From a virus, in IMG/VR virus record IMGVR_UViG_3300035152_000026, positions 1 to 22,001 of that record: a stretch of DNA of 22,001 nt; one strand, written 5' to 3'. The notes beneath the pieces are model-generated. The model searched no databases and was not told where the DNA came from. It worked only from the letters and a program-made list of their open reading frames with translations. A program made the position numbers and the translations under genes. Below are positions 17,377-19,360 of the stretch, in pieces. Position 1 is the stretch's first letter; every line of letters begins with the position of its first letter.

Positions 17377-17994
17377 ATGATCGTCATGCAGGGTATCGAT
17401 GGTTACTTCGGCCAGGTCAGCGGCTTCGGCGCTGCTGATTTCACCAAGGGTGTCAACTACAACTGCGGCGCGAACATCTGTTGGGGCATCGGCAAGGCCA
17501 ACCATGCCACGCTCGAAGCGTTGCAGAATGCCATCAACCGGTTTGCTGCAAGCCTCGGCTTTTCACCGATCAAAGTCGATGGCTTCATCGGCAGCGCGAC
17601 GGTCAGCGCTGCCTCGGCTGTCGCAAAGAACGTGCTCAGCGCGAACCCTGCTATGCTTGCTATAGCGGCGTCCAAGGAAGCGTTGACAGCCGCAGCACCG
17701 GCGTTCACGGCTGCGGCGTTGCAAGCTGCCACAACACAAGCGCTACCAGCCGTGCCGCCGCCTGCGACGAAACCGGTCGCCAAGACTGAGACGCAGAAGC
17801 AGGAAGAACAGCAGGCTCAGAGGGAGTCGAGTTCTGGGTCCGGTGCTGGCGCTGCCAAGAGCAACTGGGTGTGGTATGTCCTCGGCGCAGCAGCGATCTT
17901 GGGAATCGGCGCTGTCGGGTACATGACCTACAAGCGTCGGCAGAACGGAATGGAGATGGAGCCCTCTCCAGGCTACGGCTACGCGCGATACTAG
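17377..17994 (+). CDS. tail-anchored protein with peptidoglycan-binding-like domain (paralog 1)
   Basis: Track ORF 17278..17994. I prefer the ATG at 17377 (GAGGA upstream). LEALQNAINRFAASLGFSPIKVDGFIGSATVSA resembles the PG_binding_1 core (L..L...G....DG.FG..T..A). Ala/Pro/Gln-rich linker. C-terminal TM WVWYVLGAAAILGIGAVGYM followed by YKRR. Confidence 0.5.
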   Translation: MIVMQGIDGYFGQVSGFGAADFTKGVNYNCGANICWGIGKANHATLEALQNAINRFAASLGFSPIKVDGFIGSATVSAASAVAKNVLSANPAMLAIAASKEALTAAAPAFTAAALQAATTQALPAVPPPATKPVAKTETQKQEEQQAQRESSSGSGAGAAKSNWVWYVLGAAAILGIGAVGYMTYKRRQNGMEMEPSPGYGYARY

Positions 17995-18047
17995 CCCGCT
18001 TGCTATGGCTCTCGGATCGCGCCCGCGATCTGTGATAGAGTCGATTC

Positions 18048-18686
18048 ATGCTTACAGTTGAAGGTCTGGGAAATTGCTGCATCTTCGGGGACTGCGGCCT
18101 CGGGAAGTTCATGCAGGACCAGGACTTTGCATGCTACAAGGACGGTAGCATCTACGCCTGCAAGGCCAAAGGCGCCAGCTGGGAAACCACGCTGACAGCC
18201 TTCAAGACGCTGCAAACGACCGTTCGTAGCATCTCCGCGCAGATGGCTGCGGCAGGCGTCCTCAAGGTCCCGTCGCAGCTCTCGACGCTCGTGGTTGATG
18301 GTCACGTAGGCAACACAACCGCGCTCGGCGTGCAATTCATCGGCGCGGCATTCATGGCCGCGGTAGCACCCGATGACCCCGAAATCGCGTTCGCGCTGAC
18401 ACCCTCAGGCAACGCGCAGGGCGACATCGAGAAGATCGCGACCTACGCCAGCGAGATCACGAACTACTTCAACTACGTTGTGACGAACCATCCCGAGGCG
18501 CTCAGTCCGCCCCCTGCGGTGGTCAAAGAAGTCGTCGAGGTCGAGAAGATCATCCAGAAGCAGTTCGGGACTGAGTTCCGCCCCATTGGTGGCCTCGTTC
18601 TGGCGGCAGGCCTCGCTGTAGCGTTGGGGCTCGCAGCCGCGAGCGTCTACTACTTCACCCGAGAACAACGATACGGAGATTTCTGA
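18048..18686 (+). CDS. tail-anchored protein with peptidoglycan-binding-like motif (paralog 2)
   Basis: LKVPSQLSTLVVDGHVGNTTALGV motif. C-terminal TM GGLVLAAGLAVALGLAAASVYYF. Its stop overlaps the next ATG (TGATG at 18683-18688). Confidence 0.5.
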   Translation: MLTVEGLGNCCIFGDCGLGKFMQDQDFACYKDGSIYACKAKGASWETTLTAFKTLQTTVRSISAQMAAAGVLKVPSQLSTLVVDGHVGNTTALGVQFIGAAFMAAVAPDDPEIAFALTPSGNAQGDIEKIATYASEITNYFNYVVTNHPEALSPPPAVVKEVVEVEKIIQKQFGTEFRPIGGLVLAAGLAVALGLAAASVYYFTREQRYGDF

Positions 18687-19360
18687 TGTTCAGTTTGCAA
18701 GGCGGTTTGCAGGGAGGTCCTGCGATTCTCACACCGGCCGAGCAGCTCAACGGCCACGGTATGGGTGAAGCCAGCAGCGTCCTCGATATCGAGCCTTTCA
18801 CCGACAAGCACTGTGCACGGCTCAACAGTGGATCACACTGTAGTGCGACCACCGCCGACGGCGTAGACCTGTTCAAGGATGTGCAGGTGGCTGTCAACAA
18901 GGCGGCGTCAGCGTTGCGTGTTGTGGGCAAGCTGGATCCCTACACAGCGCTCAAGATCGATGGCGTGATCGGGCCCAGCACAGCTGACCTGGCCACTGCG
19001 GTGCTTCTGGCAGCGGACCCGACAACGCGGTCGAAGGTTTGGCTCAACGATCCACGCAGCATGAAAACCGAGCTGATGGCACCGCTGCTGGCTTCTCAGC
19101 CTCAGTACGCGGTCGAGACGTTCACCGAGATCGCGGAGCAAGCACGTCCAACCCCAGTACAACCGGTGAGTCCGGTAGAACCCAGTGCGCCAGTTCCAGA
19201 GACCAGCCCACCAGGTACTGTTCCGGCGCCTGCACCTGCGGCTGAGCCTCCCAAGGTGTTCTGGACCCGCAAGAAGAAGATCGTTGCGGTGGCGGGTGTT
19301 GGCGTCCTCGCCGTGGGACTACTCGCGCTGGTTCTGTGGATGCGTAACCGCGCCGAGTAG
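18686..19360 (+). CDS. tail-anchored protein with peptidoglycan-binding-like motif and Pro-rich linker (paralog 3)
   Basis: LKIDGVIGPSTADLATAV motif. PTPVQPVSPVEPSAPVPETSPPGTVPAPAPAAEPP linker. C-terminal TM IVAVAGVGVLAVGLLALVLWM followed by RNR. Confidence 0.5.
   Translation: MFSLQGGLQGGPAILTPAEQLNGHGMGEASSVLDIEPFTDKHCARLNSGSHCSATTADGVDLFKDVQVAVNKAASALRVVGKLDPYTALKIDGVIGPSTADLATAVLLAADPTTRSKVWLNDPRSMKTELMAPLLASQPQYAVETFTEIAEQARPTPVQPVSPVEPSAPVPETSPPGTVPAPAPAAEPPKVFWTRKKKIVAVAGVGVLAVGLLALVLWMRNRAE

Follow-up and report, generated by a model that had tools for sequence, protein, structure and literature searches.

Phage lysis systems are classed by the route that the endolysin takes to the cell wall, be it a holin, a signal peptide or a signal-anchor-release (SAR) domain; C-terminally anchored endolysins are a rare and mechanistically unexplained exception. 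M4Lys of Salmonella phage BSPM4 lyses E. coli alone, independently of Sec and of a holin, and requires its transmembrane domain (TMD) (PMC7143992). The Enc34 enzyme of a Hafnia phage (ORF39) is TMD-dependent and does not need a holin; its authors call the access mechanism unknown (PMC8943055). In LysAP of Acidovorax phage AP1 the TMD is needed for localization and lysis, and the enzyme lyses alone but more strongly with a holin (PMC8879335). SleB-like lysins have been implicated in the lysis of Vequintavirinae phages (PMC7344957). The window analysed here (the whole stretch of 22,001 nucleotides, positions 1-22,001 of the IMG/VR record IMGVR_UViG_3300035152_000026) carries three consecutive plus-strand genes, A, B and C, whose products combine a divergent PG_binding_1-type domain with a single C-terminal transmembrane (TM) helix, and a divergently oriented gene, N, whose product is anchored in the same way and has the fold of the SleB/CwlJ lytic enzymes. 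We give a probability of about 0.5 to the reading that these proteins form a lysis-type, membrane-tethered muralytic module.

Gene A (17377-17994) is an open reading frame (ORF) of 205 residues, gene B (18048-18686) one of 212 residues and gene C (18686-19360) one of 224 residues. An earlier note on this DNA had placed the three ORFs at these positions and described them as a soluble N-terminal domain, a low-complexity linker and one C-terminal TM helix. The layout is confirmed, with the qualification that a low-complexity linker is present in A and C only, the corresponding segment of B being conserved and non-repetitive. A longer ORF for A begins at 17278 but, because MIVMQG opens all A orthologs, the start was set at 17377, with a GAGGA sequence 4 nucleotides upstream. 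For B, some pipelines call an internal methionine at 18111; the orthologs start MLTVEG, and 18048 is favoured because a promoter-like motif exactly precedes it. The proposed translational coupling of all three genes holds for B and C, where the start of C overlaps the stop of B (ATGA, 18683-18686), but not for A and B, which are 53 nucleotides apart, B having its own promoter-like motif.

In A, residues 1-18 are flexible and Gly-rich and precede a β-hairpin that contains Cys30 and Cys35; the PG_binding_1-like helical domain spans approximately residues 19-120 (nucleotides 17431-17736), and the C-terminal half consists of an Ala/Pro/Gln-rich linker, the TM helix (residues 164-189, nucleotides 17866-17943) and a basic tail. 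B is the most conserved of the paralogs and has the most divergent domain (DGHVGNTT); its conserved middle segment leads to a TM core at residues 180-198, with an uncharged span reaching to about residue 204 (nucleotides 18585-18659). C has Cys43 and Cys52, the PG_binding_1-like core, a Pro-rich linker at approximately residues 155-190, the basic cluster TRKKK and a TM helix at residues 199-219 (nucleotides 19280-19342). The motif noticed earlier, of the type L..L...G..(V/I)DG.(I/F)G..T..A, is found in all three: LEALQNAINRF...IKVDGFIGSAT in A, FKTLQTTVRSI...LVVDGHVGNTT in B and FKDVQVAVNKA...LKIDGVIGPST in C, each with a pair of cysteines upstream. The first six codons also resemble each other (A, 17377-17394, MIVMQG; B, 18048-18065, MLTVEG; C, 18686-18703, MFSLQG), so that a hexapeptide M-[IL]-[IVTF]-x-[QE]-G is kept across paralogs that are less than 25% identical elsewhere. 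A Gly-rich stretch, disordered in the AlphaFold2 model, follows it, and comparable starts (MLFTT, MIFAT, MLIQS and others) occur in many distant family members. The hexapeptide may be a signal for processing or recognition, or may form a strand that packs against the domain.

The identity of the N-terminal domain rests on profile comparison and on the predicted fold. A profile (A9) of 102 positions of the N-terminal domain was run in an exhaustive search of 1.84 billion representative proteins and matched 549 representatives at an expectation value (E) of 1e-3 or lower, 43 of them at E ≤ 1e-10. One class of matches consists of proteins of 160-300 residues with the layout of A-C, which account for 92 of the top 150 representatives; the Cys pair is present in 79 of these 92 and D[GS]xxG in 90. 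Another approximately 20 of the top 150 are longer anchored proteins with two to five DGxxGxxT motifs and the same C-terminal anchor. Two proteins, P0141 (740 residues) and P0142 (855 residues; P-numbers denote representative proteins), have four tandem units of Cys-hairpin and PG-binding-like domain, then a Cys-rich segment and a C-terminal anchor. The second class consists of long multi-repeat proteins that Pfam recognizes as PG_binding_1 arrays (E 7e-109, 3e-134, 8e-71 and 8e-90), some of them fused to Amidase_3, CHAP or DUF2272. Against the Pfam-verified repeat proteins the E values of A9 range from 4e-16 to 1e-9, and the match covers profile positions ~50-97. Local hhalign of A9 against the repeats of Pfam-verified PG_binding_1 proteins gives a probability of 93.8% (E 1.7e-7), a test that is partly circular because the repeats were drawn from matches of the same profile. 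In a profile search of the PDB an endolysin (7rum) and the Streptomyces Zn DD-peptidase 1lbu take the first two places, both aligned at the DGxxGxxT segment with E ~0.04.

An AlphaFold2 model of A, computed from the alignment of 19 sequences, has high confidence at residues 30-120 [predicted local distance difference test (pLDDT) > 90]. It shows a β-hairpin with Cys30 and Cys35 followed by helices at residues 40-54, 57-60, 73-85, 91-96, 100-105 and 107-120; the linker is poorly defined apart from one helix (138-152), and the TM helix runs from 164 to 189. The domain is thus a helical bundle with a DGxxGxxT turn, to which a Cys-stapled hairpin in front and three helices behind are added as extras on the PG_binding_1-like core. 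The best Pfam match, PG_binding_3 on A, has E 0.015 and 15.9 bits against a cutoff of 24.6, with none on B or C, and all three proteins stay below the gathering thresholds of PF01471 and PF09374; curated models miss A-C because they are too divergent. The suggestion of PG-binding-like domains made from the sequence is therefore backed by profile search, profile-profile comparison and fold, though Pfam thresholds are not reached. These data support, at profile and fold level, a divergent PG_binding_1-type domain as the N-terminal core, from which we infer peptidoglycan binding itself.

Pairwise BLASTP of A, B and C is not significant (E 0.47-7.5). Comparison of ortholog profiles by hhalign reveals the relationship: 96.7% for A-C (E 4e-10), 81.5% for A-B (E 1e-5), 49% for B-C (E 2e-4) and 96% for C against a fourth paralog, D, of related loci (E 5e-9). 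The shared core is ~60 residues long, and every profile alignment spans the Cys pair, the LQxxhN helix and the DGxIGxxT turn. In the 19-sequence joint alignment the initiator Met, a Gly, both Cys, the Q of LQ and the D and second G of DGxxG are invariant, with the first G of DG and the T nearly so. The orthologs, which came from a word-index protein search that returned a handful of C relatives, are 42-84% identical between loci, whereas the paralogs share less than 25%. A, B and C are true and very old paralogs, as the earlier note had supposed, although pairwise BLASTP does not see it. Its further suggestion, that the triplication reflects diversification towards alternative receptors or wall types, is not borne out, since each of A, B and C is an old ortholog group with its own conservation. 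Compared with L011 (L-numbers denote related loci), N of the window is 68% identical, A 58%, B 84% and C 64%; the paralogs and the enzyme N thus evolve at about equal pace, and A-C do not resemble a rapidly diversifying receptor-binding set. This pattern fits distinct co-operating subunits better than interchangeable variants.

Kyte-Doolittle scans find one hydrophobic segment per protein, C-terminal in every case (A 165-183, B 180-198, C 199-217), and none at the N-terminus of A, B, C or N. Hydropathy gives the same picture for the family, with a C-terminal TM segment in 74 of the 92 small representatives and an N-terminal one in none; the tail beyond the TM segment has a median of 13 residues (96 family members). 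A-C thus belong to the C-tail-anchored class, with one TM segment near the C-terminus and neither a signal peptide nor a further TM segment, as had been proposed, and their insertion is expected to be post-translational. Analysis of the flanking charges gave mixed signals on topology across the family. Both the Cys pair and the Pro-rich spacers speak for N-terminal domains that lie on the wall side, and the ~35-residue Pro-rich linker of C, if extended, would be of the order of the membrane-to-wall distance. A C-terminal sorting signal (LPXTG or PEP-CTERM) was considered and rejected: there is no signal peptide, the NCBIfam matches are sub-threshold (14 bits against a cutoff of 29) and the signature that A-C share is limited to WxW at the start of the TM segment.

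Gene N (16389-17279, minus strand) encodes 296 residues and lies head-to-head with A, with 97 bp between them. The earlier note had given this neighbour as 16389-17162 and convergent; it is longer and divergent, while its tail anchor stands (one C-terminal TM segment, residues 262-280, by Kyte-Doolittle scan). The N-terminus MSCLPPWH...SGC...GNVQC is kept in homologs, and a promoter-like motif ends 6 nucleotides before its ATG. N has the fold of the SleB/CwlJ (Hydrolase_2) catalytic domain; a sequence-level match to SleB or PF07486 was not obtained with Pfam or in profile and single-sequence searches of the PDB. E73 of N, within SEVGSG...VAVAEAALHR, is invariant and presumably takes the position of the catalytic Glu motif of SleB (GEARGE...VAVAAVILNR). 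One IMG/VR relative has a second, divergent SleB-fold copy of N (L018:7197-8162, E 6e-25) beside the first.

N and the anchored PG-binding-like genes are conserved together. Local hidden Markov model searches of all ORFs found both in the same locus in eight of the eight loci assembled from protein look-ups and genome contigs (the window, L001, L008, L010, L011, L012, L014 and L015). They adjoin directly in seven and lie ~3 kb apart in L015; in the IMG/VR loci they adjoin in seven of nine (L018-L024). The arrangement is mostly head-to-head and the recurring order is N, an A-like gene, a B-like gene, further genes and a small membrane protein; the relatives' contigs show an opposite-strand gene of ~250-290 residues, then A, B and C. 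Binding-type subunits number three in the window and two to four elsewhere. D (~188 residues) follows C directly in L008 (6349-6912), L010 (2705-3274) and L011 (6809-7375), and the gene tables of L005, L008, L010 and L011 mark its position as a variable segment, in which relatives carry other small genes besides D. In the window two small plus-strand ORFs, 19375-19626 (83 residues) and 19632-19931 (99 residues), hold that place and are unrelated to D, which was therefore lost or replaced here. C and D are additions in the sub-lineage of the window.

The small membrane protein downstream (19995-20228, plus strand, 77 residues) has one strong TM segment (residues 17-35) and a second, weaker hydrophobic one, and ends in a charged tail. 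Its homologs recur close to the module in L008, L010, L011, L012, L018 and L019, which makes seven loci with the window, and the protein is 88% identical in L011. It had been described as a two-TM holin-like protein; a conserved small membrane protein it is, but only one TM segment is strong and no holin family of Pfam, PHROGs or NCBIfam matches it, so that it is holin-like in shape only and a candidate, putative holin. The bitopic membrane protein noted further downstream is present and conserved in orthologs (20243-21280, plus strand, an ORF of 345 residues with start candidates at 20243, 20357 and 20477), with an Arg-rich N-terminal part, a TM segment at 141-159 and a β-rich C-terminal domain. 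It is 76-79% identical to its orthologs (76% for L011) and gave no family or PDB match in profile and single-sequence searches; whether it is part of the module is uncertain. Beyond it, a β-rich protein of 130 residues (21566-21958, plus strand), also with no family or PDB match, shares 93% identity with its ortholog in L011, much more than its neighbours do; this protein and the bitopic one may have structural roles or may be additional components of the module. Inside the module of distant relatives lie lipobox lipoproteins (L001:11247-11675, L012:7688-8038 and L012:9030-9317), two of them mutually homologous, which are possible outer-membrane partners; no lipobox ORF was found in the window, and the lipoproteins are absent from its sub-lineage.

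The window contains five copies of the motif TAGAST-N6-RTG, where 0.41 would be expected by chance, and none of 100 shuffles reached five. All five copies read TGnTAGAsT, the shape of an extended -10 element, and end 6 nucleotides before an ATG, the spacing expected for leaderless mRNAs. The copies lie before N (TGATAGACT, 17277-17294, minus strand, a candidate promoter of leaderless type 6 nucleotides upstream of the ATG at 17279), before B (TGATAGAGT-N6-ATG, 18033-18050, plus strand, ATG at 18048), before the 77-residue gene (TGCTAGACT-N6-ATG, 19980-19997, plus strand, ATG at 19995) and, at 1246-1260 and 2706-2720 on the plus strand, before small ORFs of 65 residues (from 1258) and 69 residues (from 2718). 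Counted from TAGAST to the ATG, the copies before N, B and the 77-residue gene span 17277-17291 (minus strand), 18036-18050 and 19983-19997 (both plus strand). The motif is kept before the orthologs of B and of the small membrane protein in L008, L010 and L011 and before the A-like gene of L012. A in the window is preceded by the Shine-Dalgarno-like GAGGA and not by this motif. Since B has its own copy, B and C, possibly with the two small ORFs that follow, would form a unit separate from A. A scan of 16200-21600 for sigma-70 and terminator consensus sequences gave counts at or below chance. The conservation and spacing suggest that TGnTAGAsT-N6-ATG marks phage promoters whose mRNAs are leaderless, which might point to the type of host; the motif may aid the annotation of these genomes and host guesses.

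Megablast of the window and tblastn of N found no match in 50,697 GenBank phage records. N occurs in only three of 185,579 species-level genomes, on short contigs in metagenome-assembled genomes (MAGs) labelled Bdellovibrionales, Polyangiales and Actinomycetes; these are three unrelated phyla, the scatter expected for mis-binned mobile DNA. It is also found on nine IMG/VR viral contigs of 70-196 kb. The related loci contain dense small orphan ORFs, genes for Macro, NUDIX, ART-PolyVal and dual-specificity phosphatase proteins, and homing endonuclease, methyltransferase and glycosyltransferase genes; their AAA ATPase, which Pseudomonas and Rhizobium phages have too, shares 43% identity with that of cluster-type mycobacteriophages. 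On the strength of the MAG scatter, the nine IMG/VR contigs, the orphan ORFs and the phage-type accessory genes, a bacterial chromosomal origin was rejected. Shine-Dalgarno sequences and ATGA overlaps indicate prokaryotic translation, and we conclude that the loci belong to a clade of large, uncultivated phages with contigs of 70-275 kb. No capsid, tail or terminase gene was seen in the stretches of the loci that were read, and the only sign of a capsid, tail or portal gene beside the module in the ~200 kb scanned in related loci is a weak portal match (E 2e-5). The G+C content of the window is 56-64% throughout, and it has no tRNA.

Elsewhere in the window, 4718-6349 (plus strand) encodes a Ro60/TROVE-like RNA-binding protein (Pfam TROVE E 6e-10; phrog_850 E 1e-39), and a member of phrog_4652 is also encoded. 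The product of 2924-3901 (plus strand, 325 residues) is an unusual fusion: a Peptidase_C39 domain at the N-terminus (E 7e-13) is joined to a TM segment in the middle and a C-terminal part that weakly matches ParB-like nucleases (PHROG E ~5e-3). That such a C39-like peptidase might cut the Gly-rich N-termini of A-C as double-glycine leaders is an idea only, for which no evidence was obtained. Weak matches to PARP-catalytic and RNA 2'-phosphotransferase-like proteins (Pfam E 0.037; PHROG E 0.007) make the 213-residue product of 14889-15530 (plus strand) a possible ADP-ribosyltransferase-fold enzyme. A DUF3228 protein (E 6e-16) is encoded by 11184-11798 (minus strand), and the product of 7162-7989 (minus strand) has a near-threshold match to DUF3140 (E 6e-5).

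The SleB fold of N and the conserved small membrane protein downstream support the earlier proposal of a cell-wall-directed cassette. A lysis-type module is favoured because, among known systems, the rare endolysins that have a C-terminal TMD but lack a signal peptide come nearest in function. In such a module A, B and C would be three ancient paralogous subunits, each held in the host cytoplasmic membrane by its one C-terminal helix and each bearing, on a spacer of ~40-70 residues, a PG_binding_1-type domain stiffened by the Cys-stapled β-hairpin. N would be anchored likewise and present a peptidoglycan-cleaving fold of SleB/CwlJ type, so that wall binding and wall cutting, the two domains of SleB, would be split between separate anchored polypeptides. 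A-C and N would build up in the membrane. With their N-terminal domains at the wall side, the PG-binding subunits would then dock a patch of membrane onto the peptidoglycan, and docking would position or activate the tethered N, which would cut glycan strands locally. Access to the wall could be gained through the TM helices, as for the C-terminal-TMD endolysins, or with help from the 77-residue protein. The purpose would most likely be host lysis at the end of infection, with the 77-residue protein as candidate holin or trigger. A narrower form of this reading, in which the proteins make up a hetero-oligomeric, C-tail-anchored 'split endolysin' that reaches the wall by a TM-helix-mediated route independent of a Sec signal, is put forward tentatively and is clearly less probable than the lysis module as such.

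Several observations weigh against a lysis module. Pfam, PHROGs and NCBIfam have no model at threshold on A, B, C or N, and the most direct profile comparison is in part circular, as said above. The window has neither a recognizable holin family match nor a spanin. N is unusually conserved for an endolysin, at 45-64% identity over more than 235 homologs, which would also suit a structural or entry protein. Basic residues flank the TM segment on both sides; the charges of A-type proteins favour a C-in orientation and those of B- and C-types N-in. We know of no route by which an N-terminal domain of 160-190 residues would cross the bacterial membrane without a signal peptide. By analogy, classical tail-anchor biology, as in TssL of the type VI secretion system, argues for cytoplasmic N-terminal domains (PMC3426401).

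A quite different explanation is that A-C face the cytoplasm as tail-anchored scaffolds, their fold serving protein contacts or the binding of soluble muropeptides or precursors; they might act in assembly at the membrane or keep N sequestered and inhibited until a trigger, as in antiholin-like control. The PG_binding_1 fold is indeed also used for protein contacts, for example in the pro-domains of matrix metalloproteinases. Bacterial C-tail-anchored proteins such as the YidC-inserted TssL keep their N-terminal domain in the cytoplasm (PMC3426401), and both the lack of a signal peptide and the B- and C-type charges agree with this. The invariant pair of hairpin cysteines would be hard to explain in a reducing cytoplasm, however; close linkage to a gene for a SleB-fold enzyme suggests a role at the wall, tethers that span the envelope typically have long Pro-rich spacers, and the strongly basic tails of A-type proteins favour C-in. 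We regard cytoplasmic scaffolds as improbable. Somewhat ahead of them, though still unlikely, stands a virion or entry module in which N and A-C are virion-associated or ejected and digest and grip the wall during genome delivery; the membrane-associated transglycosylase P7 of PRD1 offers a parallel. The strong, core-like conservation of N, its maintained linkage to the PG-binding genes and the high identity of the 130-residue, 77-residue and bitopic neighbours to those of L011, as structural genes tend to show, speak for this explanation, and conserved Cys pairs suit extracellular life. It is at odds with the dearth of capsid, tail and portal genes beside the module in the ~200 kb scanned, and membrane anchors would be unexpected on proteins packed in the head of a tailed phage; we know of no large phage with an internal membrane.

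Anchored wall-binding proteins could also alter envelope mechanics, tying the membrane to the wall so as to block phage DNA (superinfection exclusion) or to stabilize the cell, with no part in lysis. That the genes have promoter-like motifs of their own and make no obvious late operon would agree with such remodelling, but it leaves the pairing with a wall-cleaving fold and the recurrent holin-like protein unexplained, and exclusion genes are usually sporadic rather than conserved across a clade. We consider it very unlikely, the least probable of the explanations named, and leave a small share, only slightly larger, to explanations of other kinds.

If the wall-binding and wall-cutting proteins co-operate, the modular endolysin idea would extend to membrane subunits that act in trans, in a clade in which a wall-cutting fold and separate wall-binding domains are both C-tail anchored and genetically locked together; a large unannotated family would gain a working annotation, and engineered lysins new modules. 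The split-endolysin reading, if true, would add a large new family of hundreds of 50%-identity metagenome clusters for which there is no curated model, and would offer a starting point for explaining how C-terminal-TMD endolysins are exported. Targeted full-text literature searches returned no description, and the curated collections no model, of free-standing C-tail-anchored PG-binding proteins paired with a C-tail-anchored SleB-fold enzyme.

A-C are neither spanins, nor sorting-signal proteins, nor SAR endolysins. Like the spanins Rz/Rz1 they are phage-encoded, membrane-anchored, envelope-spanning by the reading preferred here and near putative lysis genes. An i-spanin, however, carries its TM segment at the N-terminus and has a coiled coil in the periplasm, and o-spanins are lipoproteins, whereas A-C have a C-terminal TM segment, a globular domain and no lipobox; with the TM segment at the wrong end, no lipobox ORF in the window and a PHROG Rz match of E 0.18, the spanin-like role once proposed for them is rejected. 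TssL-type proteins share with A-C the single TM segment near the C-terminus and the lack of a signal peptide, but the N-terminal domain of TssL is cytoplasmic, whereas the domain type and conserved Cys pair of A-C argue for a function on the wall side. The C-terminal-TMD endolysins resemble N in layout only: an N-terminal muralytic domain (predicted in N), a C-terminal TMD, a basic tail and no N-terminal signal. They differ in using other catalytic folds (Enc34 belongs to the PHA02564 family) and in having no separate anchored binding proteins, and A, B and C differ from them in lacking any catalytic domain. Known PG_binding_1 (PF01471) and PG_binding_3 (PF09374) domains include the N-terminal domain of SleB (6tci), the endolysin of Burkholderia phage AP3 (5nm7), phiKZ gp144 (3bkh) and 1lbu; beside these, the domains of A-C fall below the Pfam thresholds, have the Cys-stapled hairpin and three extra helices and occur in stand-alone proteins, unfused to an enzyme, with a C-terminal TM segment and no signal peptide. 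Bacillus SleB itself is a single secreted protein that joins PG_binding_1 and a Hydrolase_2 catalytic domain (structures of the two halves: 6tci and 4fet/4f55). In the window the two kinds of domain sit on separate anchored polypeptides without a signal peptide, in a viral context rather than in spore germination, and the binding part is present three times here and four times in relatives. We therefore rate the locus as known folds in a new split, membrane-tethered arrangement of phage cell-wall or lysis machinery, represented by a large unannotated family.

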